Notes: generated by a model from the letters alone, not told the origin. DNA of 64,000 nt from Candidatus Omnitrophota bacterium (GCA_016193175.1 JACPSR010000142.1:54332-118331); one strand, 5' to 3'. Numbered from the stretch's first letter, positions 9,095-58,289 are shown. Program-made: numbers and translations.

Positions 9095-10141
9095 ATGCCG
9101 GAGCAGAATCGCAAGTCGGCTTACGTGTACGACCAAGATGTCTTCCGGCCGGGAGCGCTCTTTTGCCGCCCTCATACAATCGCCTGGTTCGGTCGGATTC
9201 ACAGTGGCGGGGCGCTGGAGTTCTGTCACCAGGTGCGCTGGAACAACTGGGGATTCCGCGACGACGCACCGTATGGCCCACGGCGAACAGCGCGCGAACT
9301 CCGGATTGCTGTGCTCGGGGATTCTTTCGTGAGCAACCTCGACAGCGAGGCGGCGTGGCCAAATCTGGCGGATGGTTTGCTGAAAGCTCGCCTCGGGCCG
9401 GAAATCCGCGTGTTCAACTTAGGATTGCCCGGAGTCGGACCGGCGAACTGGATGGCGATGGAACACCTGGTGCGGGCGCTCGCGCCGGACCTGATTGTAG
9501 CGGCGTGTTATGACGGCATTCTGAAGCGACCGGCGATCCAGTTCGTTACAGACGTGCCTCGCCGGCGCTTTGTGTGCCGCTACGGCTATCCGCTGCACAG
9601 CGCGCGGCCGATCGGACTCTACGATCCGGCGTTCCGGACGCGGTGCGCTGAGGAGCGGGCGGCGGCGGTGCAGGCGCTGAATCATGCGCAGCGCGCTGCC
9701 GGGCCGACTACCTGGTCCCATGTGCGCACCTGGCTGGATCGGCGCTGGATGAATGGGCAGACCATCGGTGAGCTGAATGCGTCGCGCTTGCGGCGGATCC
9801 TTCGGTGGGCGCCCGCAGCCATGGTGGTGGGGTGTCCGTCCCAGGCCCGGTTCACGGGCGAGATCCTGGATGACGACTCCTCCCAAGCATTGGAGCGTGT
9901 GGCGGTGGCCGAACGGGTGCCATTGGTGGACCTGTACGCTGAGTTGCAGGGACGGAGTCCGGAGCAGCTCTATACCGCCAGCAGCGGTCATTGGAGCCGT
10001 TCCGGCAACCAGGCGGTGGCAGAGCGCCTCGCGGACCACTGGGAAGCATGGGCCCGGGCGCGCTGGACCGGTGCGGCGATGCGTGAAGCTACGCCATCCA
10101 TTCACGTGGATGGAGCTCCCGTCCGGGCAGCGGGACAATGA
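9095..10141 (+). CDS. SGNH/GDSL-type hydrolase or acyl-esterase family protein
   Basis: Block I IAVLGDSFV. Size and context fit a glycan O-acyl esterase/transferase. Start is the first ATG after the upstream stop. Confidence 0.55.
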   Translation: MPEQNRKSAYVYDQDVFRPGALFCRPHTIAWFGRIHSGGALEFCHQVRWNNWGFRDDAPYGPRRTARELRIAVLGDSFVSNLDSEAAWPNLADGLLKARLGPEIRVFNLGLPGVGPANWMAMEHLVRALAPDLIVAACYDGILKRPAIQFVTDVPRRRFVCRYGYPLHSARPIGLYDPAFRTRCAEERAAAVQALNHAQRAAGPTTWSHVRTWLDRRWMNGQTIGELNASRLRRILRWAPAAMVVGCPSQARFTGEILDDDSSQALERVAVAERVPLVDLYAELQGRSPEQLYTASSGHWSRSGNQAVAERLADHWEAWARARWTGAAMREATPSIHVDGAPVRAAGQ

Positions 10142-11418: not shown

Positions 11419-12918
11419 ATGGAACGTGCAGACCACCGAGGTGAAGGTACCCTCTCGCCCCGCGAGGTTGAGATGGTCAATGCCTACGGTCCCTATCATC
11501 ATGCCGTCTGGTCTGCTGGGGGTGTGGCGATCAGCCATGAAGAACGGCTCAGCGGCCGCGGGGAGTTCTTGGTCGATCGGATTCGCGAATCCCTCCTGAA
11601 GCGTTTCACACTCGATGAGATCAAGACGTTTTCCATTCTGGACGTGGGATGCTATGACGGGTGGATCCTGCAGCAACTCAGCGAGTTACCGTTTGCCCGG
11701 TTGGTCGGCATCGAGCCGCGAGAGAAAAATCTCATGAAAGGGCAGAAGGTGAGGGAACTCCTGCGCATTCCCTCGCGCGTTGAGTTCAAAGTCGGCGACC
11801 TTGATTCGCTGGGCGAGGAGACGTTCGACGTGGTCATCTGCGCTGGGTTGCTTCATCATGTCGAATCTACGCCGGCGGCGCTGCGCCGCCTGAGGGCTGT
11901 CTGCCGGCGGTTCCTGTTTATCGAGACGATCTGTCTCTCATCCCGGCATATCACGAAGGCGCTCCAGCGCGAGATTGAGATGAAGGATGTCGTGTACTTT
12001 TATAAGCGCAAAATCTGCGGGGTGACAGGCCAGAAATGGGAGTCATCCTATTCCGATGGGTCAACTACCAGGCTCTGTGTCGTGAACATCCCGTCCTTGG
12101 AATCGCTGACGATGTATCTGGATCTCTGTGGATTTGAAGGGGTGGACATCGTGACGAATCCCGCGGAGTACCGTGCAGCCGTCTGGAGGGATCAACGGGC
12201 CTGCAACGCCGTCTGTCTTTCCGCGGTCATCCGGGCCGAACAGCCGGAAGCCGTTTCTGAGGAAGAGTCCTGGGTGCAGGGGTATGAGAGGGGGCTGGCC
12301 AGAACGATCCTGAAGAAAGCGTACGTGCAACCGCTCTATGAGATCTGGTGTCTGCGAAAGAAACGGGTCCGTCTTCCCGTGTCCTGTTGGACCACCTGGC
12401 TGTATCTCCGTTCGCCAAACCGGTGGGCGGGCCTGTGTCATTCCCTCACGGCCATCTGGTTCAAGGATCGGTATGCGCTGGAGATCGTCAAAAATCTGAG
12501 GTTTAACCCGGAAGACAAGCTCCGTCTGGAATATGGCAAAGTCCTCTGCGACGAGGGCGATACCGAGGGGGCCATCGCGGTTCTGAAGGCCGTGGTGCAG
12601 ACGCTCAACGCGGATTGGTGGTCGGTGTATCGGTCCTTTGCGCTGCTCTCGGACGCCTACGTGCGGATCGGATCGCACGAAGAAGCACAGCGGTATGCCT
12701 CGTTGTGCGCCACCTGCAACCCGAAGTTTCCGCACATCGCTCAGGCGGCACGGGGATTTCCCGAGAGCGACCGACAGGACCACGATGATGGTGCGATGTC
12801 GATGATCCCACGCCCTGCTTCGGTCCCGCCAACGGCGGGACCGTGTTTGCCCACAGCGCATCAACCCATCTTGCAAACACACGCTGCCTGCGGCAGCGGG
12901 AAGCGGGGCGTGGGATGA
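11419..12918 (+). CDS. Class I SAM-dependent methyltransferase with C-terminal helical-repeat (TPR-like) region
   Basis: ILDVGCYDGWILQQL and FDVVICAGLLHHV motifs. The last ~38 codons (12805-12918) are encoded by junction element copy 2, so the true C-terminus is uncertain. An alternative start is at 11473. Confidence 0.6.
   Translation: MERADHRGEGTLSPREVEMVNAYGPYHHAVWSAGGVAISHEERLSGRGEFLVDRIRESLLKRFTLDEIKTFSILDVGCYDGWILQQLSELPFARLVGIEPREKNLMKGQKVRELLRIPSRVEFKVGDLDSLGEETFDVVICAGLLHHVESTPAALRRLRAVCRRFLFIETICLSSRHITKALQREIEMKDVVYFYKRKICGVTGQKWESSYSDGSTTRLCVVNIPSLESLTMYLDLCGFEGVDIVTNPAEYRAAVWRDQRACNAVCLSAVIRAEQPEAVSEEESWVQGYERGLARTILKKAYVQPLYEIWCLRKKRVRLPVSCWTTWLYLRSPNRWAGLCHSLTAIWFKDRYALEIVKNLRFNPEDKLRLEYGKVLCDEGDTEGAIAVLKAVVQTLNADWWSVYRSFALLSDAYVRIGSHEEAQRYASLCATCNPKFPHIAQAARGFPESDRQDHDDGAMSMIPRPASVPPTAGPCLPTAHQPILQTHAACGSGKRGVG
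12802..12918 (+). repeat. Palindromic junction element, copy 2 (117 bp, right arm slightly degenerate)
   Basis: Left arm ATGATCCCACGCCCTG 12802-12817 and right arm GGGGCGTGGGATGA 12905-12918. Hairpins GGTCCCGCC-AAC-GGCGGGACC 12822-12842 and CGCTGCC-TGC-GGCAGCG 12882-12898. Inner stem GTGTTTGC/GCAAACAC 12843-12850/12873-12880. Confidence 0.85.
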
Positions 12919-12934
12919 GCTGCGAAGGGATCAT

Positions 12935-13837
12935 GTGACGATGCGGGTGGTGGTGACCGGATCAGAGAGCTTCATCGGTAGGGAATTGCGACGGCATGGC
13001 CAAGCGAAACAGATCGAATGGGTCGGCCTGGATACGGCCCCCGCTGACGATCCGGGGCACATCCAGATCGACATTCGCTCTCCGGAGCTTGCGGATGTCA
13101 TCCCAGAGGGGCTGGACGCGGTGGTGCACCTCGCGGCCATTTCGCGTGATCAAGATTGTCGTGCCAACCCGCAGCAGGCATTTGATGTCAACGTGTCAGG
13201 GACCCTGAACGTCATACGGGCCGCACGGGAGCGAAACGCCCGCCAATTCATCTTCGCCTCGAGTGAATGGGTGTATGGGGACGTGAGCTCCGATGCCGTC
13301 CAGACGGAAGATCAGCCCATTGCGGTGACGGGGATCCGGTCCGAGTATGCACTGTCCAAACTAGTCGGGGAGCAAGTGCTCCGCATGGCCTTCGCCCAGG
13401 GTCTCTGTCCGGTCACCGTGCTGCGGTTCGGGATTGTGTACGGCCCAAGGCCTTCCAACTGGTCGGCCGTGGAGACGCTCTTTCACGCGGTACGGACACA
13501 ACAGACCGTGACGGTGGGAAGCCTGGAGACGGCAAGACGATTCATCCATGTCTCCGACATCGCTGAGGGGATTGTGAGCGCGATCGGACAGGACGGATTC
13601 CAGATCTTCAATCTCAGCGGGGATCGGCTCATCACCCTGCGTGAAGTAATCGAGCAGAGTGCGTTGTTGCTTGATCGACGCCCCACCGTGGTAGAGCGGG
13701 CGCCGGAAGGCGTGAGCATCCGCAATCCTGATAACCGAAAGGCGAAGCACCTGCTTGGCTGGGAACCCGCCACGGATCTCCCACATGGATTGCGATCCCT
13801 GGACGAGACGCTGCAGACGACCGGTGCGCATGAGTGA
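12935..13837 (+). CDS. NAD-dependent sugar epimerase/dehydratase (SDR)
   Basis: RVVVTGSESFIGREL Rossmann motif and catalytic YALSK. GTG start at 12935 or ATG at 12941. Confidence 0.8.
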   Translation: MTMRVVVTGSESFIGRELRRHGQAKQIEWVGLDTAPADDPGHIQIDIRSPELADVIPEGLDAVVHLAAISRDQDCRANPQQAFDVNVSGTLNVIRAARERNARQFIFASSEWVYGDVSSDAVQTEDQPIAVTGIRSEYALSKLVGEQVLRMAFAQGLCPVTVLRFGIVYGPRPSNWSAVETLFHAVRTQQTVTVGSLETARRFIHVSDIAEGIVSAIGQDGFQIFNLSGDRLITLREVIEQSALLLDRRPTVVERAPEGVSIRNPDNRKAKHLLGWEPATDLPHGLRSLDETLQTTGAHE

Positions 13838-13843: not shown

Positions 13844-14005
13844 GATCCCACGCCCTGGCACCGGTAGCGCCTCAATGACCACGAGTGAATACGCGGACAC
13901 CGCAGGCTGGTTCGGCACTGCCGAGGCCGGCCAGCAGATGAGACCAACCGGAGGAGCCGGCCAGGGCCACGCGATGCGTGGCCCGTGCCAGGGCGTGGGA
14001 TGATC
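13844..14005 (+). repeat. Palindromic junction element, copy 3 (162 bp, longest)
   Basis: Arms extend to 15 bp: CCCACGCCCTGGCAC 13847-13861 and GTGCCAGGGCGTGGG 13985-13999. Hairpin GGGCCACGC-GAT-GCGTGGCCC 13964-13984. The downstream ATG at 14000 lies in the right arm. Confidence 0.85.
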
Positions 14006-14845
14006 ACGACGCCTAAGGCCACGCGGCCGCCTCACAAGGGCTCCGTGCGGGGCCATCCCATCGAGGTTCGCAAATCCGTGTTGTCCATCCTCTACAAGAG
14101 CAAGGCCTCGCACCTGGGACCCTCCATGTCGGCGGTCGAGATGTTGCTTGCGATCTACAATTCCGTGGACCTTGATGCCATCCGTGCCAAAGATGTGCTC
14201 CGGCCTCGGGTGATCATCAGTAAAGGCCATTGCGCGGCGGCGACCTACAGCGTGATGGCCCACGTCGGGCTCATGGATTTTCGGACCCTCGAGACCTACC
14301 ATCAAGACGATTCCGCGCTGGCCGGGCATGTCAGCCATGCCGTGGAGTTCGTCGAACACTCGACGGGAGCGCTCGGCCATGGGCTGCCGGTCGCGTGTGG
14401 ATGCGCCATGGGGCTTCGGGCTCGTGGTGCCCCACAGACCCCCGTCTTTGCGCTCCTGGGTGATGGAGAACTCCAAGAGGGGGCGGTGTGGGAAGCCATC
14501 ATGTTCGCCAAGCACCACCAGCTGGCCAACCTCATCCTCCTGATCGATGACAACCGGATCAGTAGCATCACCAACACCGCAGAGGTCATCAACCTGCTGC
14601 CCCTGAAGGACCGCTTCGCCGGGTTCGGGCTTCGGGTCTATGAAGTCGATGGCCATGATGTCGAAGCGATCATTGAGGCGATTGATGACATCAAGAGGAT
14701 TCGGGAAGTCAGCGTGATTATTTGCCGGACGACGAAGGGCTACGGGGTCCCCTTCGCTGAAGGCGAGCCGATCTGGCATTACCGGACCCTGAACGAGCAG
14801 GACTACCGCGCTGCGATGGCGTATCTCGAACAGGGGCAGATCTGA
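14000..14845 (+). CDS. Transketolase, N-terminal (ThDP-binding) subunit
   Basis: SKASHLGPSMSAVEMLLAIY, GALGHGLPVACG and ThDP motif LLGDGELQEGAVWEA. Start is the ATG within the repeat arm. Confidence 0.85.
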   Translation: MITTPKATRPPHKGSVRGHPIEVRKSVLSILYKSKASHLGPSMSAVEMLLAIYNSVDLDAIRAKDVLRPRVIISKGHCAAATYSVMAHVGLMDFRTLETYHQDDSALAGHVSHAVEFVEHSTGALGHGLPVACGCAMGLRARGAPQTPVFALLGDGELQEGAVWEAIMFAKHHQLANLILLIDDNRISSITNTAEVINLLPLKDRFAGFGLRVYEVDGHDVEAIIEAIDDIKRIREVSVIICRTTKGYGVPFAEGEPIWHYRTLNEQDYRAAMAYLEQGQI

Positions 14846-15762
14846 TGCGAGGCCGCATCATGAACGCCGTCTTCGCGCGGATGCAGGCTGATGAGAACGT
14901 CTTCTTCCTCACGGCCGACATGGGAATTAATTTGGTCGAGAAGATTCAACAGGTGTTTCCATCCCGGTATCTCAATGTGGGCATTGCCGAACAGAACTTG
15001 ATCGGCATCTGTGCCGGGCTGTGCAATCTGGGCTTCCGTCCGGTGGCCTATACGATCTCGCAGTTCATCAGCCATCGCTGCTATGAGCAAATTCGCAACG
15101 ACCTGAAGCTTCACGACTATCCTATTACGCTGCTGGGAACCTCTGCGGGGTTTGATAACGCTCCGCTGGGCCCGACCCACCATATCGTGGACGACTGGGG
15201 CGCGGTCCGCACCATCCCGGGGATTGACATCTACTGTCCGTCCAGCGTCAGTTATGCGGACACGCTCGTGGACAAGATCTTGGCGCAGCCTCGTCCGGCG
15301 TATGTGCGGATTCCAAAGGGAGCCTTTGAACAACCCGCCTCGCGAGACGATACCCTGTATCTCGAGGGGGCACGCGGGGGCCCCTTGCTGATCTCGTATG
15401 GGTCAACCGTACAGACGTGCTTAGCGCTTCAGGCGCGGCATGCGGAGGTATCAGTCCTGGTGTGTAATCGGTTGCGTCCACTGCAGGCCGATCTCGTGCG
15501 GGCCGCGCTGCAGCGGCATCCCAGCGCATTCGTGGTCGAGGATCATTTCCCCAGCAGCGGCCTGTACAACATGCTATGTCAGTTCTGCATGGAGCATCGC
15601 CTCGCCTGCCAGCTGAGCAGTTTGGGCCCGCGGGAGGAGTATCACCTGAAGGTCGGGGCCTCGGCAGGCTACTATCATCGGCTCTATGGTTTTGACGAAC
15701 AAGGGATCGAGCGCGCGTTGTGGGGCCAATCACATGCTCTCATTGATTCTCCCAACCTATAA
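14845..15762 (+). CDS. Transketolase, C-terminal (pyrimidine-binding) subunit
   Basis: FFLTADMG, NVGIAEQNLIGICAGL and GPTHH motifs. TGATG junction with the N-terminal subunit. Confidence 0.85.
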   Translation: MRGRIMNAVFARMQADENVFFLTADMGINLVEKIQQVFPSRYLNVGIAEQNLIGICAGLCNLGFRPVAYTISQFISHRCYEQIRNDLKLHDYPITLLGTSAGFDNAPLGPTHHIVDDWGAVRTIPGIDIYCPSSVSYADTLVDKILAQPRPAYVRIPKGAFEQPASRDDTLYLEGARGGPLLISYGSTVQTCLALQARHAEVSVLVCNRLRPLQADLVRAALQRHPSAFVVEDHFPSSGLYNMLCQFCMEHRLACQLSSLGPREEYHLKVGASAGYYHRLYGFDEQGIERALWGQSHALIDSPNL

Positions 15763-16831
15763 TCGACCCGGGTTGCTTCGCCGGGTCCTGAGGTATTACG
15801 AGGCATGCCAATTTCCGCATCGGGTGCTCGTGGCGGACTCGAGTGACGCGCCTGCGGCGGAGGCGAACCGGCAGATCGTGGAGGCCGTCTCCCGCGCCAT
15901 GCCGGTCGAGTACCGGCGGTATGATTCCGCTCTTGAGGTGCCGATGAAACTGGCGGAAGCGCTCGAAGGGATTCAGTCGACGTACGCGGTGATCGGATCG
16001 GATGACGATTTTTTTGTTCCGAGTGCACTAGAACGAGGGGTGGCGTTTCTGGAATCGCATCCCGACTACGCCCTGGCGCATGGTGAGTCGGCGTATTTCG
16101 TCTTAGAGTCTGACAGGATCGTTTCCGGCCGGTGTGTGGGGGTGGGGCGATATCTGCAACGCACGATCGATCACGCGAGCGGCTCGGAGCGATTGGCGGC
16201 GCATCTCGCGCAATACACCACCACCTTTTATTCAGTCCATCGGACGGAGCAACTGCGCAGGAATTGGCGTCGAGTGGCTGCGCTGCCTCTCGATCATTTG
16301 TTCGACGAGTTGCTCCCGTCATGCCTGTCGCTCATCGAAGGCAAGAGTCAGAAACTCGACGAACTCTACATGGTGAGGCAAATCCACTCTGCGCAAACAG
16401 CACGGACACGGGGTTCCAGAGGCCTCGGTTGGGTGATGGGTCAACGCTGGTCAGAACACTACGCACGATTTCAGGATCTGCTGGCTGAGGAGCTGGTTGG
16501 CCAGGACAGGATCACCATGGAGGCCGCGAGGGAAGTTGCCAAACAGGCGTTCCGGCCCTATGTAGCCCGATATGTGGCCAAAGAAGTGGGGAAGTCGCGT
16601 CAGTTGCACGATAGCGTCGCCATCAGGATCGGGGCGCGAGTGCGCAGGGTGGCACGAGGGATGCCTCTGCTGCGTTGGGGCTGGCACCTGGCACGCGCGA
16701 TCAGGCCGATGTCGCGCACAGCCATCTCGCTTGAGGCGTTGCTTCGCCAGACCTCGCGCTATCACGAAGGATTTATGCCGATCTATCGAGCGGTGACGGC
16801 GCAGAACGGTCACGAGGTCGGTGCGTCATGA
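15734..16831 (+). CDS. Glycosyltransferase family 2-like protein (paralog 1 of a tandem pair)
   Basis: LILPTYNRPGLLRRVLRYY N-terminus (GT-A style) and VADSSD. C-terminal SRYHEGFMPIYRAVT is shared with the next gene. Confidence 0.5.
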   Translation: MLSLILPTYNRPGLLRRVLRYYEACQFPHRVLVADSSDAPAAEANRQIVEAVSRAMPVEYRRYDSALEVPMKLAEALEGIQSTYAVIGSDDDFFVPSALERGVAFLESHPDYALAHGESAYFVLESDRIVSGRCVGVGRYLQRTIDHASGSERLAAHLAQYTTTFYSVHRTEQLRRNWRRVAALPLDHLFDELLPSCLSLIEGKSQKLDELYMVRQIHSAQTARTRGSRGLGWVMGQRWSEHYARFQDLLAEELVGQDRITMEAAREVAKQAFRPYVARYVAKEVGKSRQLHDSVAIRIGARVRRVARGMPLLRWGWHLARAIRPMSRTAISLEALLRQTSRYHEGFMPIYRAVTAQNGHEVGAS

Positions 16832-16941
16832 TCCGCCCTAGCAGTCCCGCCGAAGGCGGGGTCGCCCGACGACCACAGGATTGCAACAGCGGGTGCGACG
16901 GCTCCACCACGGGTGGAGCCCTGCCAGGGCGTGGGATGATC
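16828..16941 (+). repeat. Palindromic junction element, copy 4 (114 bp, left arm carries a 2-nt deletion)
   Basis: Left arm ATGATCCGCCCT 16828-16839 (CA missing) and right arm CAGGGCGTGGGATGATC 16925-16941. Hairpins CCCGCC-GAA-GGCGGG 16846-16860 and GGCTCCACC-ACG-GGTGGAGCC 16900-16920. Upstream stop TGA 16829-16831 lies in the left arm; downstream ATG 16936 lies in the right arm. Confidence 0.85.
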
Positions 16942-18096
16942 ACCCTGTGCGTTCCCACCTACAATCGTCCCGCGTTCATCGAGCGGTTGCTGCGCTACTA
17001 CGCAGCCACCAGCTCTCGGCACTGGATCTTCATCGGCGATTCCAGCGATCCCAATGATGCCAAGCGCACCCAGCGGGCGGTCGCGTCGTGGGGGGGGCGG
17101 CTCCAGGTGCGCTACGAGGCGTGCGCGGGCTTAAGTTCCTGTGCCGCCTTGGAACATGTCAGTCGCCTCATCATGACCCCCTATTGCGCCTTTTTAGGCG
17201 ATGACGATTTCCTCTGCACGAATGGGATCGAGCAGTGCCTGGAGTTTCTGGAGCGCCATCCCAGCTACGGGGCGGCTCATGGAAAAGGCCTCCTGTTCCA
17301 AACCGAAACCGGAGCTGCGTACGGACCGATTGGGATGGTCAGGCCGTATCCGCAGGTCGTGCTGAATGCGGATTCTGCTGCCGGGCGACTGCGAGACGTA
17401 TTGACCGCACGCGTCGGCGGGCTGCTGTATTCGGTGCATCGGACTCACACGTGGCGGGCCATGTTCGCGGGGATCGGGCGGCTCTCAGGCACGACGAATA
17501 CGAACATCTTCAAAGATGAGCTCATCGCGGTTTGCCTCTCCGCCATTCGCAACACGGTGCAGGAACTCGACTGTTTGTACCTGATTCGTCACACACATGA
17601 GGCGATCTATAAGTACCCCACTATCTACGATTGGGTGACAGATCCGATGTGGTTTCCGTCGTTCCAGGCATTCCGTGATCGCCTGGTCACGGAACTGATG
17701 GAGCAGGACCGTCTGCATGAGCCAGACGCGCAGGCCGTCTTCAAGGATGTGTTCTGGTCCTTTCTGGCTCATGTCCTCATGAACGGTTGGCAGCGATCCC
17801 GGCAACCAGCGCGAGTGAAACCAGTGAGTCGGCTGCAGGTTCTGGCCAAGCGCGTGCCGGGCCTACAGCGCGGGTGGCAAAAGGTGTTGGCCATTCGGCA
17901 GCGGTGGCAAGACGAACTGTCGCTGCCGGCGCTGCTTCACCCCTCCTCACCGTACCATGACGATTTCATGCCGATTTATGAGGCGGTGACCCACGCGCCC
18001 GCGGACGCACTCGTGGCGGTGGCGTCCGAGCGCCACCTGGTGTCCAGCAAGGGCGCGTTGGATGCTGGTGCGGTGCTGAGAGAGCCCCATGGCTGA
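16936..18096 (+). CDS. Glycosyltransferase family 2-like protein (paralog 2 of a tandem pair)
   Basis: MITLCVPTYNRPAFIERLLRYY, IGDSSD and C-terminal SPYHDDFMPIYEAVT parallel the preceding gene. The open frame extends to the ATG at 16828 through the repeat. Confidence 0.5.
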   Translation: MITLCVPTYNRPAFIERLLRYYAATSSRHWIFIGDSSDPNDAKRTQRAVASWGGRLQVRYEACAGLSSCAALEHVSRLIMTPYCAFLGDDDFLCTNGIEQCLEFLERHPSYGAAHGKGLLFQTETGAAYGPIGMVRPYPQVVLNADSAAGRLRDVLTARVGGLLYSVHRTHTWRAMFAGIGRLSGTTNTNIFKDELIAVCLSAIRNTVQELDCLYLIRHTHEAIYKYPTIYDWVTDPMWFPSFQAFRDRLVTELMEQDRLHEPDAQAVFKDVFWSFLAHVLMNGWQRSRQPARVKPVSRLQVLAKRVPGLQRGWQKVLAIRQRWQDELSLPALLHPSSPYHDDFMPIYEAVTHAPADALVAVASERHLVSSKGALDAGAVLREPHG

Positions 18097-18271
18097 ACGG
18101 GATCAGACGCGGGTGTTGATTGTTGGGTGCCGACAAGTGGGCAGTCGGCATCTGCAGGCCGTCGCGACGTTGCCACACGTTGCTGAGATTGACGTCATCG
18201 ATCCGCGCGCTGCGGCGACGCTGACGAGGCACACAGAATCGGTGTTTGGCTACGAAGGAGGAACTGGATGA
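18089..18271 (+). pseudogene. N-terminal remnant (about 40 aa) of a Rossmann oxidoreductase, paralogous to the 5' end of CDS 21227-22231
   Basis: MAERDQTRVLIVGCRQVGSRHLQAVATLPHVAEIDVIDPR versus MAESDNARVLIVGCGELGSRHLQAVATLPDVAEIDVVDSR. Both have the same ATGGCTGA junction. The 60-codon ORF then diverges and stops. Confidence 0.65.
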
Positions 18272-18981
18272 CGCTCACAGGACTCGTGCAACGGGGATGT
18301 CGCACGTTTGGCTTCGAGGTGCGCCGTCTCCACGGCGGGGTCGTACCCCAGCCGCCGCCCATGATTGCGTACTGGCTCGACCGGGTCGAATATGTCCGGT
18401 GCCGCATGGAGCAGATTGCCCATCTCGATGGCGCTATCGTTGAATGCGGGGTCTATCGGGGTCGTACCCTGTCGATGTTCGCCTATTGGATGCAGCGGCC
18501 GGCGCACGCCCAGCGCCACCTCTTTGGATTCGATTCGTTCCGAGGGTTCCCCGCACCGACGCCGAACGATGGAGGAAACCGGGAGGCTCACGAGGGGAAC
18601 TATGGAGACACCTCCCCAGCGATCGTGCGCGCGTTCCTTGAAGCCTCAGGCATTCCTCGGGAATTCATGGAGACGCGGTGTCACCTGATCCCTGGCTTTT
18701 TCAGCGAGACCGTGCCCAATTGGACGCCGCAGCCTATTGCCCTGCTGCATGTGGACTGCGATCTCTATGAATCCACCATGCAGGTGCTCACCCTCCTTGC
18801 GCCGCAGGTCGTCCCAGGAGGCGTCATCCTGTTTGATGAGTACGAAGAGCCTCGGTATCCTGGGGCCAGGCAGGCGATCGAGGAGTATTTCGGTGAGGAG
18901 GTCTCGGCAATCCAAACGGACGCCTTCCGGAACAAGCACTACCTCGTCAAGGTAGGTGTGCCGGCTCAGAGGAGCGCCTAG
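18268..18981 (+). CDS. TylF/MycF-family class I SAM-dependent O-methyltransferase
   Basis: LLHVDCDLYESTMQVLTLLAPQVVPGGVILFDEY is characteristic of the macrocin-O-methyltransferase family. Confidence 0.7.
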   Translation: MTLTGLVQRGCRTFGFEVRRLHGGVVPQPPPMIAYWLDRVEYVRCRMEQIAHLDGAIVECGVYRGRTLSMFAYWMQRPAHAQRHLFGFDSFRGFPAPTPNDGGNREAHEGNYGDTSPAIVRAFLEASGIPREFMETRCHLIPGFFSETVPNWTPQPIALLHVDCDLYESTMQVLTLLAPQVVPGGVILFDEYEEPRYPGARQAIEEYFGEEVSAIQTDAFRNKHYLVKVGVPAQRSA

Positions 18982-20076
18982 GTGTCAGGATCGCCATGGC
19001 GTGGTGAGATGACGGCTGTGCTGACCGAGTATGCACAGGCCCATGTGGTGCGGGAGCCGCGTCTTGTCGAGCGGCTGTTAGTCATCGGGGGGCTGCCCGG
19101 GTGCGGGAAGGGCCTGTTGGCGCCGATCCTCGGCACCTTGGCCCGGATCGAGATCCAGAAGTACAACGAGGCCATCGAGCATGTCTGTGGACTGCGCCTC
19201 CTCGGCAAGCTGGATGAGGAGACGGCCACGGTGATGATCCGGATGCTCACGGACTTGGATCTCTATTACCTCAGCATGTCCAGAGAAGTTAATCTGAGAT
19301 TCGGGGACATCACATCCGTGTGGAAGAATGCCGGAACCCTCCGATATCTCCGAAGGCTGTACCAGCCCGGGGATGCGGCGGCGGTCGAGAGGATTCGACG
19401 CGAACACCCCATCCTCCAGATTCTCCTGCACAGCGGTCTGGCGATCAGCCCGCCGCTGTTTCGGGCCTTGGGAAGCGCCGTGCGGTTGCTCGATCTGGTC
19501 CGGCATCCCCTCCACCTCATTCACGTGTCGTGGCGGGCGTACATCGAACGCTATGGCATCGATGTCCGAGATTTCACGCTCTGGTGTGCGTACGAGGGCC
19601 GGGCGGTGCCGTATTTTGCGCAGGGATGGGAGGACCTCTACCTCAGATCGAACCCCATGGATCGCGTGATTTTTTCGATCGAGCGCTTGCTGGAGATGGG
19701 TCGCCAGGCGATAGAGAGCTTGCCTGATGATCAGAAGGCACAGGTGTTGATTGTCCCATTCGAGCGCTTTGTGCTGGATCCCTGGCCGTACCTGGAGCAA
19801 ATCGAGGGGTGGCTGGGCACACGGCGGACCTCCCTGACACGCAGGACCATGAAGCGGCAGCGCGTGCCGAGGGATCGGGTGACCGCGACGGTTGACCGTC
19901 CGATCGACAAGCTGTATCGCTGGAAGTCTGCGGGGAAGGCCACAGGTGCAGGCGGTGAGTTGGCCCAGCTGCGGCGCGCGGTGGCGACGGAGGCCTCCGC
20001 GGAGGGCCTCAAGGTACTCGACCGACTGTGTGCCGACTATGAGGCGACCTACCTCGACGGCGGCGTGAGATGGTGA
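18982..20076 (+). CDS. P-loop (GxPGxGKG) protein of unknown function, kinase- or sulfotransferase-like
   Basis: VIGGLPGCGKGLL resembles an NMP-kinase-type Walker A motif. GTG start at 18982 or ATG at 19009. The C-terminus LCADYEATYLDGGVRW is duplicated as a remnant at 23326-23413. Confidence 0.4.
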   Translation: MSGSPWRGEMTAVLTEYAQAHVVREPRLVERLLVIGGLPGCGKGLLAPILGTLARIEIQKYNEAIEHVCGLRLLGKLDEETATVMIRMLTDLDLYYLSMSREVNLRFGDITSVWKNAGTLRYLRRLYQPGDAAAVERIRREHPILQILLHSGLAISPPLFRALGSAVRLLDLVRHPLHLIHVSWRAYIERYGIDVRDFTLWCAYEGRAVPYFAQGWEDLYLRSNPMDRVIFSIERLLEMGRQAIESLPDDQKAQVLIVPFERFVLDPWPYLEQIEGWLGTRRTSLTRRTMKRQRVPRDRVTATVDRPIDKLYRWKSAGKATGAGGELAQLRRAVATEASAEGLKVLDRLCADYEATYLDGGVRW

Positions 20077-20342
20077 CCGGCGTCGGTCTCAGGGGGCTTG
20101 CGACGTCCACGCGACGTGGAGGGATTGGCACGCTGCGGGTTGCGGTTCTCGGGACGGGAAGTGCCGGCCTGATGCCTCTGCGTGCGCTGCGTCAGCTCGA
20201 GGGAGTTGAGCCAGTCGCGGTGCCAAGGCGTCTTGAATGCATCGAGGCGTTGGCTGCGATGGGCATGCGCACATCGCGAGATCTGCGTGAGGCAGCCGCA
20301 ACGGGCGCCATCCGCCGTGAGGGGCAATCCCATGACTCCTGA
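20070..20342 (+). pseudogene. N-terminal remnant (about 70 aa) of a Gfo/Idh/MocA oxidoreductase, paralogous to the 5' end of CDS 23407-24423
   Basis: RVAVLGTGSAGLMPLRALRQLEGVEPVAVPRR...RDLREAAATGA versus RVAVVGTGSAGMRHLDVLRQLDGVESIAVPKR...RDLREVVASGA. Both have the same ATGGTGA stop/start junction. Similarity ends near 20312 and the ORF stops at 20342. Confidence 0.65.
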
Positions 20343-21234
20343 GGCAGCCGAAGTTCGTATCGCCGCACCATCCATCGACGCTGGAGAACTCTATGATGTG
20401 GCGGCGGCTGGTGGGGAGTTCTGGTTCTACCAAGATCTCCGAGACAAGAGCCCTCGGTGGTATGATGAATGCTATTTCAACCCAGACTGCGTGTTGCTGT
20501 TTCCGGAGACCCGGCAGGTCTACTGGTTTGATCTCGACCACGTCTCGGTGGGGGCGGAGGCGACCGGTACCCGGCGGCACGTCTTGGGGAACCTCTGGAG
20601 GAAAAAATTCGCCTTCGCCTCCGATGGTAATCGACTGAGTATCCTGCCCTGTGCAGTGACAGGCCTGTGGAGGGGCAGGCCCACGGCGATGCGGCCGCAG
20701 GAGACAGAAGGCATCGCCTACGTGGTCGGCGATCGCTATCGGAGAGTATGCGAGATCAGGGCCGATGGCACGATGGATCCTCAAGAGCGACGCGAGCTCG
20801 ATGAGGCCTGGCGTCAGCACCGGAAGTTGAAGGTGGGGGTACCACTGGGCCGGAGCGTGCTCATCTATGGGATCCGGCTGGCGTTCCAGCAAAAGGGGGT
20901 CTACAGTTTTGCTTCGAAAACCGTGGTCATCCCATCCCCGCAGGCGCGGGCGTTCTCATGGGAGCAGGCATCACTTGGGAACATCTGCGTGGGATCGGAT
21001 GGCTCCTGTTCCATCTACCGTGAACAGACCTCGCGGCCGGGTCTCCTGCAGGTCCTCGCAACCTATGCTCCCACGGTGCTGCAACGGGCTAGCGGCATGT
21101 TGAACCGATCCCCGGATGGGTTCAAGGAATGGGTGCGGTCGCTGGCGCGGCCGATGCTTCGGTGTCTGCTCACATTTGAAGTCGACCATGCGCGGTGCCC
21201 GTTCACGATCTTTGTGAGGGAGGCCGATGGCTGA
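20332..21234 (+). CDS. Hypothetical protein (300 aa), no domain recognised
   Basis: Long ORF with balanced, protein-like composition. Its stop lies in an ATGGCTGA junction with the next gene. It sits between the two remnant-bearing junctions. Confidence 0.5.
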   Translation: MTPEAAEVRIAAPSIDAGELYDVAAAGGEFWFYQDLRDKSPRWYDECYFNPDCVLLFPETRQVYWFDLDHVSVGAEATGTRRHVLGNLWRKKFAFASDGNRLSILPCAVTGLWRGRPTAMRPQETEGIAYVVGDRYRRVCEIRADGTMDPQERRELDEAWRQHRKLKVGVPLGRSVLIYGIRLAFQQKGVYSFASKTVVIPSPQARAFSWEQASLGNICVGSDGSCSIYREQTSRPGLLQVLATYAPTVLQRASGMLNRSPDGFKEWVRSLARPMLRCLLTFEVDHARCPFTIFVREADG

Positions 21235-22231
21235 GTCGGACAACGCTCGGGTGCTGATCGTCGGGTGCGGCGAGCTTGGCAGTCGTCATCTGCAGGCCGT
21301 CGCGACGCTCCCAGACGTGGCGGAGATTGACGTCGTGGACTCACGCACCGAGGCGTTGAGGCAGGGACAGGAACGCCTCGTTGAGGTCACGGAGCGCAAC
21401 CCCCAAACGCGGTATCGTTGGCTATCCTCGTTGGAGGAGGCTGCTGGTGGGGGTCAACTGTGCATTGTGGCTACCCAGGCGGAAGGGCGCTGTCAGCTCG
21501 TGCGGGATGTGGTTGAGCGGCTAGGGTACGGAGGGTTTCTTTTGGAGAAGATCGTCGGCCAGTCCATCGAGGAAATTGAAGGTCTCGAAACGTTCTTGGG
21601 GGTGCGGGGGTGTACCGCCTGGGTCAACCTGAAAACACGGACGTACCCCATCTATCAGCACATCAAGCAGCGGCTGGAGCCTGGCGAGCCCATCCAATTG
21701 ACGTCGCTCGGCGGTAATCACGGTCTGGCCACGAACGGCGTGCATACGGCGGATTTGTTTGCGTTCTTCGATGGAACCGAGGAGATCGAGTTGGTTGGCT
21801 GCCGCGTTGATCCGATCCTGCATCCGTCAAAGCGGGGCGAGCGTCTCTTTGACCTCAGCGGAACCCTCCAAGGGGCCACGAAGAACGGGAGCCATTTTAT
21901 GCTGTCGTATGCGAAGGACCACAAGCAGTCGGAGCAGATCACGATTGCGGGTCGGCGCTATCGGTGCATCGTCGATCAGAGCGAGAGGAAGCGGTGGGTG
22001 GTCGAAAGCCACGTGGACACGGGTTGGGTGTGGCAGCCGGTCCCATCGACAGAGAACCTTCGGGTCAGCCTGATGAGCCGGCAATTTGTCCGGGAGATCC
22101 TCCATACCGGAACCTGCAGCCTGCCGACGCTCAAGGAGTCCTTGGTGGCGCACCGGTTCATCTTCGGGGCCATTCAGCCGGTGTTCAGTCAGCTGATGGG
22201 ACATGAGGTTGAGTTATGTCCGGTGACGTGA
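21227..22231 (+). CDS. Rossmann-fold oxidoreductase, Gfo/Idh/MocA-like
   Basis: RVLIVGCGELGSRHLQA N-terminal dinucleotide fold and FLLEKIVG (a variant of the EKP motif). Confidence 0.55.
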   Translation: MAESDNARVLIVGCGELGSRHLQAVATLPDVAEIDVVDSRTEALRQGQERLVEVTERNPQTRYRWLSSLEEAAGGGQLCIVATQAEGRCQLVRDVVERLGYGGFLLEKIVGQSIEEIEGLETFLGVRGCTAWVNLKTRTYPIYQHIKQRLEPGEPIQLTSLGGNHGLATNGVHTADLFAFFDGTEEIELVGCRVDPILHPSKRGERLFDLSGTLQGATKNGSHFMLSYAKDHKQSEQITIAGRRYRCIVDQSERKRWVVESHVDTGWVWQPVPSTENLRVSLMSRQFVREILHTGTCSLPTLKESLVAHRFIFGAIQPVFSQLMGHEVELCPVT

Positions 22232-23280
22232 CGGGGTCGGCGCTTGAGGCGCGCGCGCCGTGCTCTGCGTCGGAGCTTGCAGCCGCCATCGCCCGGGCGG
22301 ATGTGGCGGGTGCCGTTGCGACCGTGGTCGGAATCGGCACGATGGGCAAACACTTCGTGAGCGCGCTCCGGGCGCTCGGGGTGAAGCGTGTGCGCCTCTG
22401 CGCTCGTTCGCCAGGACCCTTGGAGTCGTTCCGAGCGTTCGAGGGGTTCGAAACGTTCGCCGGCGGCATTGAGCGGTTCGTCGGCCGACCGGCTCCTGGC
22501 GAGCTGGCGATTATCGCGACCCCGACGGCCTTGCTCATCCCGGCCGCCCGGCGGCTGGCGTCGCTGGGCTTCCGTCGGCTGCTGATTGAGAAACCTGTCT
22601 CGCTCTGGCCGGCGGAGATTGAGCGGCTGGCCGAGGAGCTTGAGGGCGAGGGGGTCGAGGCGTCCTGCGCCTACAACCGCGTCGCGTATCCCTCGTGTCA
22701 AGAAGTGCGGGCTCGTGTCGCCCGCGAGGGCGGGGCCACCTCGTGTACCTATACGTTCACCGAGCGGATCAAGCCGGATTGGCCGCAGACGTTTTCCGCG
22801 GAAGAGCTGGCGCGGTGGGGCATCGCCAACAGCTTGCATGTGATGAGCATGGCGCATGGGGTGATCGGCTGGCCCGCGTCCTGGTCGGCCCATCGTTCCG
22901 GCAGCCTGCCGTGGCACCCGACCGGAGCCGTCTTTATGGGGTCCGGCGTCTCGGATCGTGGGATCCCCTTTGGGTATCATGCGGATTGGGGTTCCACTGG
23001 CCGCTGGTCCGTCGAGGTCCATACCGCGGCCGCGTCGTATCGGTTGTGTCCCCTCGAACAAGTGTTTCGCCGGACATCGACGACGAGCGGCTGGACAGAC
23101 ATTCCGGTCGCGGCCTTCGCGCCGCAGGTGAAGGCGGGAATCACGGAGCAGGTGGCGGCGATGTTGTGTGAGGAGATCGGGGAGCGGGTGCCGCTGGTGT
23201 CGCTGCGCGCGGCCGCCTCGCTGTCGAGATACGCTGAAGCGGTCTTCGGCTATGACTCGGCGGAGACAGAGGCGCCATGA
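22216..23280 (+). CDS. Rossmann-fold oxidoreductase, Gfo/Idh/MocA-like
   Basis: VVGIGTMGKHFVSAL, IATPTALLIPAARRL and LLIEKPVS (EKP motif). Confidence 0.55.
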   Translation: MSGDVTGSALEARAPCSASELAAAIARADVAGAVATVVGIGTMGKHFVSALRALGVKRVRLCARSPGPLESFRAFEGFETFAGGIERFVGRPAPGELAIIATPTALLIPAARRLASLGFRRLLIEKPVSLWPAEIERLAEELEGEGVEASCAYNRVAYPSCQEVRARVAREGGATSCTYTFTERIKPDWPQTFSAEELARWGIANSLHVMSMAHGVIGWPASWSAHRSGSLPWHPTGAVFMGSGVSDRGIPFGYHADWGSTGRWSVEVHTAAASYRLCPLEQVFRRTSTTSGWTDIPVAAFAPQVKAGITEQVAAMLCEEIGERVPLVSLRAAASLSRYAEAVFGYDSAETEAP

Positions 23281-23325
23281 TCGTCGCAGTCGATCGCGCG
23301 GATCGATGAGGATGGAGACGCCAGT

Positions 23326-23413
23326 GCCAACCGTGTCATCCTTCGTTGAGACAGCGAGGCGGCTGTGCGCAGCCTATGAGGCGATGTACCTCGACGGTGG
23401 CGTGGCATGGTGA
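23326..23413 (+). pseudogene. C-terminal remnant of a paralog of CDS 18982-20076
   Basis: ARRLCAAYEAMYLDGGVAW* versus LDRLCADYEATYLDGGVRW*. DNA similarity runs from 23363, matching 20026 onward. It lies in otherwise non-coding 23281-23406. Confidence 0.55.
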
Positions 23414-24423
23414 TGGGCAGAGTGGCGACGCGGGTCGGGGTGCGGCGGGTGGCCGTCGTCGGAACGGGAAGCGCTGGCATGAGGCATCTGGATGTCCTAC
23501 GTCAACTCGACGGCGTTGAGTCGATCGCCGTGCCCAAGCGTCCCGAGCGTGCCGCAGAACTGGCCGGAGCTGGCCAGGCGGCGTTGCGCGATTTGCGCGA
23601 GGTGGTGGCGTCCGGTGCCACGCGCGCGATCATCGCGACGGATACCGGCTGTCACCTTGAAGATGGGCTTGCAGCGCTGGGGCAGGGGTTGGACCTGCTC
23701 ATCGAAAAGCCGCTGGCGACCAACGCCACCGACGCGGCACGGCTTCGCGCGGCGGCTGTCCACGCCGGGCGAAGACTATTCGTTGGTTGCGTCTTACGGT
23801 TTTCGGAATCCCTCAACGCCTTCCACTCGTTGCTGAAGCAGATCGGCCGGGTGCACTCGGTGCGCATCGAATGCCAGTCATATCTGCCGGACTGGCGGCC
23901 CGCCCGCCCCTATCAGGAGTCCTATGTGGCGCGTCGCGTAGAAGGCGGGGTCTTGTTAGATCTCATTCATGAGATCGACTACGCGGGGTGGATCTTCGGG
24001 TGGCCCAAGGCGGTTCAGGCGAGGCTACGCAACGTGGGGCGCTTGAGCATCGCGGAAGAGGAAACCGTTGATCTGCTGTGGGAAACGCCCATGGCCGGCT
24101 GCGTCTCGATGAGCTTGGATTATCTGACCCGCCCCCCACGCCGCGTGACGCGGGCCTGCGGGGAACGGGGGACCGTGGAGTGGGATGGCATCGCGGGGAC
24201 GGCGAGCTTGGCCCTTGCGGGACAAGCGCCGATGGTCGTCCGCTCTTCACAGACACGCGAGGAGATGTTCCTCGCCCAGGTGCGCGCGTTCCTCGAAGCG
24301 TGTGGTGACGGGCGCGATCCGCGACTGGCCACAGCTGAGGATGGCGTGAGGGCTCTGGCGGTCTGTGACGCAGCACGCCGGTCCTCTCAGAGCCGGCAGG
24401 AGGAGCCGGTGGTGATCCTATGA
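23407..24423 (+). CDS. Gfo/Idh/MocA family oxidoreductase (PtmF-like position in a nonulosonic acid cluster)
   Basis: RVAVVGTGSAGMRHL, LLIEKPLA (EKP motif) and a C-terminal alpha/beta domain. Directly upstream of neuA. Confidence 0.75.
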   Translation: MVMGRVATRVGVRRVAVVGTGSAGMRHLDVLRQLDGVESIAVPKRPERAAELAGAGQAALRDLREVVASGATRAIIATDTGCHLEDGLAALGQGLDLLIEKPLATNATDAARLRAAAVHAGRRLFVGCVLRFSESLNAFHSLLKQIGRVHSVRIECQSYLPDWRPARPYQESYVARRVEGGVLLDLIHEIDYAGWIFGWPKAVQARLRNVGRLSIAEEETVDLLWETPMAGCVSMSLDYLTRPPRRVTRACGERGTVEWDGIAGTASLALAGQAPMVVRSSQTREEMFLAQVRAFLEACGDGRDPRLATAEDGVRALAVCDAARRSSQSRQEEPVVIL

Positions 24424-25172
24424 GCGTCGGCAGGCGGTTGCTGGCGGTGATTCCCGCGAGGGGAGGATCGCGCGGGCTGCCGGGCAAGAACATCCGACTG
24501 TTTGCGGGGCTGCCCTTGATCGGCCATGCGGTTCGCTTTGCGCAAATGTGTCTTGAGATCACGCGAAGCGTCGTCTCCACGGATGACGAGGAGATTGCCC
24601 GAGTGGCGCGGAACTGTGGCGCGGAGGTCCCGTTCATCCGACCATCAGCGCTCTCGCAGGATGACACACCGCTGTGGCCGGTGGTTCGCCATGCGCTGGC
24701 ATGGGTCGAGGAGCACGAGGGAGAGGCCTACGACCTCGTGTTGCTCTTGGATCCCACCTCACCAGCGAGGGAGCCCTTGGATGTGAGCCAGGCGATGGAG
24801 CGGCTGCGGCACGCCCCAGAAGCCGACGGCATCATCGGGGTATCGCAGCCGGACTTCAACCCCATCTGGCACTGCGTGGTCGAACGTGACGGATGGATGG
24901 CCCATCTGATTGATAGCGGCAGGCAATTTCATCGTCGGCAGGACGTTCCCACGGTGTACCGCATCAACGGCTCGCTCTACCTGTGGCGGGCCGCTTTCGT
25001 CCGGGACCAAGCCGCTGCGTGGGAAGCGGGAAGGCACCTGATGTACGAGATTCCGGAGTCTCGGGCGATGTCGATCGACACGATCGAGGAGTTTGAACAG
25101 GCGGAGTTGTTGGTCACAGGGGGCCTCATCCATCTGCCGTGGGTGCAGGAGGACGAAAGCAGAGCAAGATGA
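24420..25172 (+). CDS. neuA: N-acylneuraminate (nonulosonate) cytidylyltransferase
   Basis: LAVIPARGGSRGLPGKNIRLFAGLPLIGHAV is the CMP-NeuAc synthetase family signature. Confidence 0.85.
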   Translation: MSVGRRLLAVIPARGGSRGLPGKNIRLFAGLPLIGHAVRFAQMCLEITRSVVSTDDEEIARVARNCGAEVPFIRPSALSQDDTPLWPVVRHALAWVEEHEGEAYDLVLLLDPTSPAREPLDVSQAMERLRHAPEADGIIGVSQPDFNPIWHCVVERDGWMAHLIDSGRQFHRRQDVPTVYRINGSLYLWRAAFVRDQAAAWEAGRHLMYEIPESRAMSIDTIEEFEQAELLVTGGLIHLPWVQEDESRAR

Positions 25173-26002
25173 CCAAGGGTCAGGTGACGGCAACGGCGAC
25201 GCGAACCCTCGCGGATCTCATGCGACTGTCAGGACGCAAGGCGCTGATTACTGGAGGGACCGGGCATGTGGGGGTGGCGGTCGGCGAGGCGCTGGTTGAG
25301 TTGGGCGCGACCGTGGCGGTGCTCGATGTCGATGCCGCGAGATGCCAGGAGCGCGCGGACGCCTTGGGCCGGATGCGAGCGCGCAGCGCGGTGGCGATTC
25401 CTTGCGACCTTCGTGACGAGCAAGCGACCCGGGGCGCCATCCACCGGTCGATTGAATGGCTGGGGGGTTTGGACATCCTCGTCCATTGCGCGGCCTATGT
25501 GGGGACGGACCAGCTCCCCGGCTGGGTGGTACCGTTTGAGCAGCAGACGGTGGACGCGTGGGATGCGGCCATGCGGGTCAATCTGACCTCCGCCTTCATT
25601 ATGGTGCAGGAAGCCCGCACGATGCTGGACGCCTCCGGTACCGGCTCGGTGATCCTCATTGGCTCGACGTACGGACTGGTCGGCCCTGATCCGCGCCTCT
25701 ACGAGGGTACGACGATGGGGACTCCCGCAGGTTACGCGGCTTCCAAGGGCGGCGTGCTGCAACTCACGCGGTATCTCTCGACCGTCCTGGCGCCACGCGT
25801 GCGCGTGAATGCCATCACCCCGGGAGGGATCTGGCGCAATCAGCCGGAGGCGTTCCACCAGCGCTATGTCAGCCGCACGCCGCTGGGCCGCATGGCTTCC
25901 GAGGAAGATCTGAAAGGGGCGGTCGCGTATCTGGCCAGCGACCTCTCGGCCTACGTGACAGGGCAGAATCTCGTCGTCGATGGAGGATGGACGGCATGGT
26001 GA
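25169..26002 (+). CDS. Short-chain dehydrogenase/reductase (PtmA-like)
   Basis: ALITGGTGHVGVAVG, YAASKGG catalytic Y-x3-K, and C-terminal VTGQNLVVDGGWTAW. Confidence 0.8.
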   Translation: MTKGQVTATATRTLADLMRLSGRKALITGGTGHVGVAVGEALVELGATVAVLDVDAARCQERADALGRMRARSAVAIPCDLRDEQATRGAIHRSIEWLGGLDILVHCAAYVGTDQLPGWVVPFEQQTVDAWDAAMRVNLTSAFIMVQEARTMLDASGTGSVILIGSTYGLVGPDPRLYEGTTMGTPAGYAASKGGVLQLTRYLSTVLAPRVRVNAITPGGIWRNQPEAFHQRYVSRTPLGRMASEEDLKGAVAYLASDLSAYVTGQNLVVDGGWTAW

Positions 26003-57531: not shown

Positions 57532-58289
57532 TGAGCTTGCGACGTCAGGGTCGTGTCGTGGCGATCACGGGAGGCACACGGGGGATTGGTCGCTCGGTCG
57601 CAGAGCTGTTCCATGACCGTGGTGAAGCCGTTGCGGTCTGCGGCCGTTCAGACCCAGAGCCTGCGCTGCCACCCGAGATTCTGTTCGGCCGTGTCGACGT
57701 GCGCGATCGCGAGGCTCTGGACGGTTTCGTTGGGAAGGTTGTGGAGCAGTGGGGAGCGCCGAATGTGTTCGTCAATTGTGCCGGCGTCTCGCGGTGGCGG
57801 GCCGTTGAGGAGATCGATGAGGCCTTTGTGCGGGAGGTGCTGGACACGATTGTCCGTGGGACGCTGTGGGGATGTGCGGCGGCTGCGAAGGTGATGACAG
57901 AGGGCGGCTGCATCGTGAATATCTCGAGCCTCGCTGGCAAGCGAGGCAGCGCGAATAACAGCGTCTACTGCGCCGCCAAGTTCGCGGTCAACGGCATCAC
58001 CCAGGCGTTGGCGAAGGAGCTCGGTCCGAGGGGCATTCGCGTCAATGCGGTGTGTCCGGCCTATGTGCCGACACCTCAGGTCCTTGCCGCGTTAGCGGAG
58101 CCGGTCTCGCCAGCCCGTGGTCAAGATGTGGAGCAGTACCTGGAGCAATTTGCGGCGACGCAGACTGCGCTGGGGCGGCTCTCCGACGCGCACGAGATCG
58201 CCGAGGCCGTGTACTTCCTGGCCAGTCCAGCAGCGTCTGCGATCACCGGACAGTGTCTCAATGTGGACTGCGGAACGCTCCCTCAGTGA
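57531..58289 (+). CDS. Short-chain dehydrogenase/reductase
   Basis: VAITGGTRGIGRSV, YCAAKFA catalytic motif and ITGQCLNVDCG. TAATG junction. Confidence 0.85.
   Translation: MSLRRQGRVVAITGGTRGIGRSVAELFHDRGEAVAVCGRSDPEPALPPEILFGRVDVRDREALDGFVGKVVEQWGAPNVFVNCAGVSRWRAVEEIDEAFVREVLDTIVRGTLWGCAAAAKVMTEGGCIVNISSLAGKRGSANNSVYCAAKFAVNGITQALAKELGPRGIRVNAVCPAYVPTPQVLAALAEPVSPARGQDVEQYLEQFAATQTALGRLSDAHEIAEAVYFLASPAASAITGQCLNVDCGTLPQ

Follow-up and report, generated by a model that had tools for sequence, protein, structure and literature searches.

Gene remnants are known from bacterial O-antigen clusters. The wzy remnants of Salmonella groups B1 and D1 resulted from deletions that followed the gain of a replacement gene (PMC3715488). 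Among the clusters of 178 Escherichia coli O-serogroups, gene remnants make up 9 of 68 recorded anomalies, and the anomalies are read as relatively recent events (PMC7685785). Here we describe a comparable element in a 64,000-nucleotide (nt) stretch of DNA from a Candidatus Omnitrophota bacterium (GCA_016193175.1, JACPSR010000142.1:54332-118331); the whole stretch is termed the window, and coordinates are counted from its first letter. The element, termed the stub, is a 60-amino acid (aa) open reading frame (ORF) with an ATG start (18089–18271, + strand), carried in the public record as HYY59_07365, ‘hypothetical protein’. An earlier reading of this DNA, the original prediction, took the truncated ORF for a non-functional oxidoreductase remnant marking a rearrangement junction, and we agree. 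We assign a probability of roughly 80% to the reading that the stub is a non-functional deletion scar, formed when a pair of oxidoreductase genes lying between a glycosyltransferase gene and a methyltransferase gene was lost by a deletion of about 1.9 kb.

Like the O-antigen remnants, the stub is a small fragment of a biosynthesis gene, without function, at a place where relatives carry the intact gene, and so a marker of cluster history; like them, it would stem from a deletion made after a functionally equivalent gene was available elsewhere in the locus. Unlike them, it lies in a nonulosonic-acid-type cluster of an uncultivated Omnitrophota metagenome-assembled genome (MAG), it is an in-frame fusion of one gene's head with the tail of the following gene, and its junction has no insertion sequence (IS) element or H-repeat. 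The parents of head and tail belong to the fold class of the Gfo/Idh/MocA sugar-nucleotide oxidoreductases (WbpB/WlbA-type). In contrast to the functional enzymes of this class, the stub keeps 40 + 20 residues and has lost a glycine of the GxGxxG motif, and is a relic only. It is another case of a known phenomenon, ordinary gene-cluster evolution in another phylum and pathway; it opens no new mechanism and bears on no long-standing question, and its value lies in annotation and history. The ‘hypothetical protein’ HYY59_07365 should be flagged as a remnant. Together with two companion remnants described below, it allows the assembly of the cluster to be reconstructed as two diverged module copies trimmed to one copy per gene, and it suggests that the cassette shuffling known from enterobacterial O-antigen loci is also at work in this candidate phylum.

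The first 40 codons of the stub (the head, 18089–18208, + strand) match the N-terminal Rossmann beta-alpha unit of Ox, a 334-aa Gfo/Idh/MocA-like oxidoreductase encoded intact at 21227–22231 (+ strand; HYY59_07390). That the 5′ end of this gene recurs at 18089 had been predicted, and in a blastn search of the window with 17900–18500 the sole non-self match indeed pairs 18077–18196 with 21215–21334 (80.5% over 123 columns, E = 3.6e-20). Compared without gaps, 18077–18215 and 21215–21353 (+ strand; 12 nt upstream and the first 42 codons of Ox) are identical at 105 of 139 nt (75.5%). The similarity is not at background: all other placements of this 139-nt comparison, on both strands, average 26.6% ± 3.9%, with 43.9% (61/139) for the next best, so that z = 12.6. 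A repeat search of the window gives the same pair as direct repeat D1 (141 nt, spacing 3138, 76% identical). Within codons 1–40 the stub and Ox share 92 of 120 nt; their peptides are identical at 32 of 43 residues (74.4%, E about 1e-17), which bears out the earlier count of about 75%. A hidden Markov model (HMM) of the Ox family (332 positions) places stub residues 2–44 on its positions 2–44 with E = 2.6e-21.

The octamer ATGGCTGA, reported earlier as an identical junction holding the stop codon of the upstream gene, does occur with that TGA at both sites: at the stub it ends GT2, a TIGR04440-type family-2 glycosyltransferase gene (16828–18096, + strand), and at Ox it ends a 300/350-aa ORF at 21234. 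As a junction signature it is weak, because a Met-Ala-Glu start is common in the family (8 of the 120 closest members) and the Ox homologue of a related locus, L064, begins with the same 12 nt as the stub, ATGGCTGAACGG; the octamer is largely family conservation of that start. Likeness also extends upstream, where the last 12 nt of GT2 before the stub ATG (18077–18088, + strand) match those before Ox at 9 of 12 positions (TGAGAGAGCCCC versus TGAGGGAGGCCG), either by shared ancestry or through a shared ribosome-binding site. The Shine-Dalgarno sequence of the stub is weakened, GAGAGAG versus GAGGGAGG at Ox.

Beyond the head the fragment had been described as simply diverging. It does not: codons 41–60 are the C-terminus of the GFO354 family, the usual downstream neighbour of Ox. 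The intact GFO354 of the window, a 354-aa Gfo/Idh/MocA-like protein, is encoded at 22216–23280 (+ strand), and when the 60-aa stub peptide is searched against all six frames of the window, a third match lies at the 3′ end of this gene (tblastn, window-wide E = 8e-5). Stub residues 40–56 (RAAATLTRHTESVFGYE) align without gaps to GFO354 codons 331–347 (RAAASLSRYAEAVFGYD; 23206–23256, + strand), 11 of 17 being identical and the other positions conservative; at the nucleotide level 37 of 51 positions agree. Among the GFO354 homologues of 20 other genomes, every one has the terminal pattern ...AA.LTR(F/Y/H).E.(V/L/I)FGY followed by 0–14 residues, a consensus fitted better by the stub than by the GFO354 of the window. 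The stub has AATLTRH.E..FGY in common with related locus L029, and ESVFGYE...G followed directly by the stop in common with L027.

A GFO354 HMM was built from 18 homologues, excluding the window sequences (305 positions). It places stub residues 32–56 on positions 279–303 of 305, with E = 3e-6 for the stub alone and E = 5e-3 against the full set of 1552 pieces from the six frames of the window, in which the stub ranks just behind the real GFO354 and Ox. The motif L-x-R-x-x-E-x-V-F-G-Y, searched as a regular expression in six frames of 925 kb, turns up nowhere but at 16 genuine GFO354 ends and, at 18221, in the stub, where it stands 5 residues ahead of the stop (family range 0–14). The tail, the last 20 codons and stop of the lost GFO354 gene (18209–18271, + strand), contains the ribosome-binding site GGAGG (18257–18261) of the next gene, MT, 6 nt upstream of its ATG. 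MT encodes a TylF-type methyltransferase (18268–18981, + strand), and the TGA of the tail overlaps its start (ATGA, 18268–18271), the ATGA junction that had been predicted.

Stub residues D38-P39-R40 follow the Ox consensus (DPR), and A42-A43-x-L-T-R follows that of GFO354 ((R/E)AA.LTR). Since the Ox consensus holds through R40 and the GFO354 consensus from A42, the join lies at or next to codon 40, a CGC (Arg40, 18206–18208, + strand) common to both parents as Ox codon 40 and GFO354 codon 331. Judged from these alignments, the stub consists of codons 1–40 of a lost Ox gene, Ox′, joined without a frameshift to the final ~20 codons of a lost GFO354 gene, GFO354′. The intact Ox-GFO354 pair measures 2054 nt, of which ~1.87 kb is missing from the stub by comparison. 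The ancestor would have carried a second Ox-GFO354 pair between GT2 and MT, and one deletion of about 1.9 kb would have joined codon 40 of Ox′ to approximately the 21st-from-last codon of GFO354′ at the shared CGC. The tail would have landed in frame with the head by chance, yielding the 60-codon ORF, and the original start over the GT2 stop and the original stop over the MT start would both remain.

Gene order in relatives agrees with such an ancestor. Of 45 homologous loci, 18 have GFO354 directly behind Ox, namely 17 of the 22 whose Ox is at least 47% identical to that of the window and also L049 (33%). A GT2-type glycosyltransferase gene stands directly ahead of Ox in L011, L012, L015, L064, L065 and L066, and in L011, L012 and L064 the run GT2-Ox-GFO354 is complete. 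The closest relative found, L064, has the order GT1-GT2-Ox-GFO354, with 53% identity for GT2, 64% for Ox, 74% for GFO354 and 62% for p364, the 364-aa protein of unknown function encoded behind MT in the window (18982–20076, + strand). The order GFO354-MT-p364 is found in two Terriglobia loci, L019 and L026, whose MTs are 29–33% identical to that of the window. From these two independent lines, GT2-Ox-GFO354 and GFO354-MT-p364, we infer the ancestral order GT1-GT2-Ox′-GFO354′-MT-p364, in which GT2 would be the native upstream neighbour of Ox′, and MT, with p364 behind it, the native downstream neighbour of GFO354′.

MT itself changes position among relatives. It lies before Ox in L027 (9200–9990), between Ox and GFO354 in L065 (10135–10872), and behind GFO354 in L019 (about 12800–13473) and L026 (about 12083–12730). 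These differing positions suggest that a class-I S-adenosylmethionine methyltransferase gene serves as a mobile methylation cassette around Ox-GFO354. The best MT homologues, P0123 and P0124, sit in unrelated cluster types.

Head and tail differ from their intact counterparts in the manner of coding genes. For the head versus Ox the synonymous divergence (dS) is 0.82, the nonsynonymous divergence (dN) 0.16 and dN/dS 0.19, with 11/1/16 differences at first, second and third codon positions; for the tail versus GFO354, dS is 1.14, dN 0.18 and the differences 5/0/9. Second codon positions account for just 1 of the 42 differences in head and tail. The low dN/dS and the codon-position pattern argue therefore that the lost pair diverged as coding genes under purifying selection, and not as a neutrally decaying recent duplicate; Ox′-GFO354′ would be a long-diverged, once-functional homologue of 21227–23280. 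This qualifies the word ‘duplicated’ in the original prediction: the sequence match to 21227 is real, but at 76–80% nucleotide identity and dS 0.82 it is not what a recent segmental duplication of 21227–22231 would give. The head peptide is 74% identical to homologue P0003, 72% to P0010 and 74% to the Ox of the window, which over the same 43 residues is itself 79% identical to P0003 and 74% to P0010.

Decay since inactivation appears slight but visible in the sequence. The second glycine of GxGxxG, present in 119 of 119 homologues, is replaced in the stub (G15R; GCRQVG versus GCGxxG), and R15 is the only stub residue unseen in 120 homologues. Of ten synonymous differences in the head, nine have A/T in the stub versus G/C in Ox, and GC content at third codon positions (GC3) is 0.61 in the stub versus 0.68–0.80 in ten neighbouring full-length genes. 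The 60 codons are free of stops and frameshifts.

A functional Gfo/Idh/MocA oxidoreductase has an N-terminal Rossmann domain of about 120 aa, an intact GxGxxG and a C-terminal alpha/beta domain. The stub holds only ~40 residues of the N domain and has no Pfam or NCBIfam match. Nor is it a conserved stand-alone protein, the other alternative to a remnant that had been raised. A word-indexed search of 5.8 billion proteins matched the stub only to itself, missing even the paralogue in the window, and in an exhaustive HMMER search of 1.84 billion representative proteins the 31 other matches are all limited to residues 1–46, none including the tail. A stand-alone small protein is thus excluded as far as the databases allow. 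One 86-aa protein from another metagenome, P0191, has itself the look of an Ox-family relic, with N-terminus, middle (…LGYRAFLL…) and C-terminal …CPVT joined by in-frame internal deletions; internally deleted relics of Ox genes may therefore recur.

Signs of other element types were not found near the stub. An Rfam scan of 15000–24000 gave no match at E ≤ 1, and scans for promoters and terminators revealed neither a promoter-like site nor a terminator close to the stub. All ORFs of 15.6–27 kb encode biosynthetic proteins or proteins whose function is unknown, and none has a transposase domain. No inverted repeats flank the stub and D1 is the only flanking direct repeat, which does not amount to an IS or transposon junction.

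Several points weigh against a deletion scar. Evidence for the tail comes from about 20 codons, and the window-wide HMM E-value of 5e-3 is modest alone. No relative was found with an intact Ox′-GFO354′ pair between GT2 and this MT, so a single deletion and the order of events are inferred, not observed; the closest homologues of GT2 and MT are 53% and 43% identical, respectively, and a metagenome scan with GT2 returned only relatives at 31–35%. The nucleotides of head codons 8–40 are nearest to the Ox of the window (79.8%, versus 73.7% for the best of 55 other homologues), and at conserved residues the codons are identical to those of Ox in 19 of 27 cases, versus at most 11 of 23 in the 55 others. 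This closeness could reflect within-lineage duplication, with a more recent shared ancestor, or a gene-conversion patch, rather than foreign origin. Finally, an ORF intact over 60 codons may be translated or have a minor role such as ribosome hand-over.

The nucleotide closeness of the head to Ox, its reach 12 nt upstream of the ATG, and the position of D1 on either side of a 3.1-kb block would all suit a history in which about 115–140 bp of the 5′ end of gene 21227 were duplicated upon insertion of an MT-364-300 cassette, for example by a single crossover, the remainder of the ORF being unrelated sequence. The remainder is, however, a GFO354 C-terminus; the head protein is as similar to homologues in other organisms as to the gene in the window; and neutral decay after a duplication would not yield dS of about 0.8 with 1 of 28 head differences at a second codon position. 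We consider this history very unlikely. Of the recombination junction originally proposed, the rearrangement stands, in the form of a head-plus-tail fusion by internal deletion and not of a 5′ piece abutting an inserted cassette. Another history is a replacement in one step through homology-facilitated illegitimate recombination: a resident Ox would have supplied the head, and an incoming foreign fragment beginning inside a donor GFO354 gene the tail, so that the two were never one pair. It gives the same structure as the deletion, and the tests made here do not separate them. A junction of one shared codon is microhomology only, the differing MT positions in L027, L065, L019 and L026 mark the region as recombinationally active, and MT has no homologue above 43% identity. 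Such a replacement nevertheless needs a donor with two GFO354 copies, or an extra event delivering the pair 21227–23280, and MT and p364 have the same GC content and GC3 as GT1 and GT2; we regard it as unlikely.

Whichever event produced it, the stub might have been kept as useful, either as a translated bridge handing ribosomes from GT2 to MT or as a small protein. Its 60 codons are open, the fusion is in frame, the ATGGCTGA and ATGA overlaps are retained, and most genes of the operon abut or overlap. MT, on the other hand, does not need coupling, since a strong GGAGG of its own lies 6 nt before its ATG, the ribosome-binding site of the stub is degraded, its nucleotide-binding motif is broken and no homologue spans the whole ORF; the prior for joining in frame is 1/3, and by our estimate 20 further open codons arise by chance in about 55% of cases at this GC content. 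A useful ORF is thus highly improbable, and it is quite unlikely that the in-frame fusion was selected so that the stub would couple translation to the methylation genes downstream. An assembly or binning artefact, a chimeric join in the MAG, has a negligible probability: the source is indeed a MAG, and Logan unitigs break reproducibly 1.25 kb upstream (16834–16863), yet contigs from six independent sequencing runs (Logan assemblies) span the stub and both junctions with 100% identity. A contig of a second MAG (GCA_016187645.1) is also identical over the stub, being the same sequence and not an alternative haplotype.

The stub has two companions downstream. The second remnant is a 90-aa ORF (20070–20342, + strand) that opens with the N-terminal ~73 codons of a gene of the type of GFO338, a second Gfo/Idh/MocA protein encoded intact at 23407–24423. 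It matches GFO338 at 56% over 64 aa (tblastn E = 2e-15) and positions 3–62 of the GFO338 family HMM (E = 2.4e-17), and it overlaps the p364 stop in ATGGTGA (20070–20076), the same heptamer that stands at the intact GFO338 start at 23407. The third remnant (23360–23413, + strand), in the 126-nt gap before GFO338, is the 3′ end of a p364-like gene, 17 codons plus the stop; it agrees with the p364 end at 14 of 17 aa (RLCAAYEAMYLDGGVAW versus RLCADYEATYLDGGVRW, each followed by the stop) and at 83% over 54 nt (blastn, window-wide E = 1e-8). A 33–35-codon ORF (23306 or 23312 to 23413) spans it, ending in ATGGTGA over the GFO338 start, a possible parallel to a stub acting as coupler.

The remnants and their intact counterparts form interleaved diverged repeats, A1 at 18077, B1 at 20023, A2 at 21215 and B2 at 23360. 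The p364 tail has a dS of 0.5 and the GFO338 head one of 1.3, of similar order to the stub divergences. Both repeat pairs yield a unit length of 5009 nt, but this agreement is an algebraic identity and carries no weight as evidence. On these comparisons the simplest reading of the locus would be two diverged copies of a module GT2-end/Ox-GFO354-(MT)-p364-GFO338 that underwent reciprocal loss, the left copy having kept GT2, MT and p364 and the right copy Ox, GFO354 and GFO338. The A1-B1-A2-B2 order and the survival of each gene intact in only one copy are as expected of duplication with reciprocal loss. Unlike in the plain form of that process, the copies are old (dS 0.5–1.3), perhaps xenologous, and separated by an unrelated gene, p300. 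The second copy would be either an old in-place duplication or foreign DNA integrated beside resident genes.

The p300 gene, a 300-aa ORF (20332–21234), has a coding-like GC3 of 0.71, without a Pfam or NCBIfam match and without a homologue in the related loci compared (L011–L067). A pure tandem duplication predicts it to be the decayed 3′ part of a second GT2 copy; this was not supported (nucleotide global alignment z = -0.45, protein local z about 3). Its last codons, VREADG before the stop, resemble the LREPHG at the C-terminus of GT2. The possibility that p300 and the second remnant form one frameshifted GFO338′ gene was rejected, there being no further GFO338 pieces in any frame of 19900–21400. 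Near the third remnant, a 24-nt inverted repeat (23202–23225/23350–23373, 92% complementary) closes a 172-nt structure that extends over the GFO354 stop and adjoins the p364 remnant. Folded as RNA, 23195–23380 has -101.9 kcal/mol, versus -77.8 ± 4.3 for shuffles (z = -5.6); the structure may be an mRNA element, or it may have arisen as a by-product of deletion.

The window, from a MAG annotated as Candidatus Omnitrophica, is a long operon-like array of sugar and glycan genes, all on one strand and mostly abutting or overlapping. The cluster around the stub is of the nonulosonic-acid type: GFO338 is followed by genes for a PseF-like cytidylyltransferase (24420–25172), a short-chain dehydrogenase (25139–26002) and a NeuB-type synthase (25987–27039), the last scoring above the NCBIfam cut-off for NeuB_NnaB. 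The Ox profile matches the Gfo/Idh/MocA entries 8qc2 and 3q2k of the PDB, and GFO354 matches WbpB (3o9z). Upstream of GT2 lie GT1 (15734–16831; the 365-aa start at 15734 is on record, a 381-aa start is without record) and a split transketolase gene (13985–15762).

In Logan unitigs from at least five runs, one unitig ends at 16863 and the next starts at 16834–16836, a 30-nt overlap just downstream of the GT1/GT2 boundary. No repeat in the window accounts for this reproducible branch of the assembly graph; strain heterogeneity may lie behind it, or the small CCCGCC-GAAG-GCGGG hairpin at this site. In the second MAG of the same organism, GCA_016187645.1, a small indel or repeat breaks the Transketolase_N gene into two ORFs of 186 and 98 aa, as seen when its L068 4238–5112 is compared with window 14548–14558, and another discontinuity lies near window 9995–10038; both are probably assembly differences. 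Finally, 58309–58503, within the ORF 58117–59076, is 43–45% identical to residues 6–70 of the cytidylyltransferase at 24420–25172, and is either the N-terminal cytidylyltransferase module of a longer protein or a further partial paralogue.

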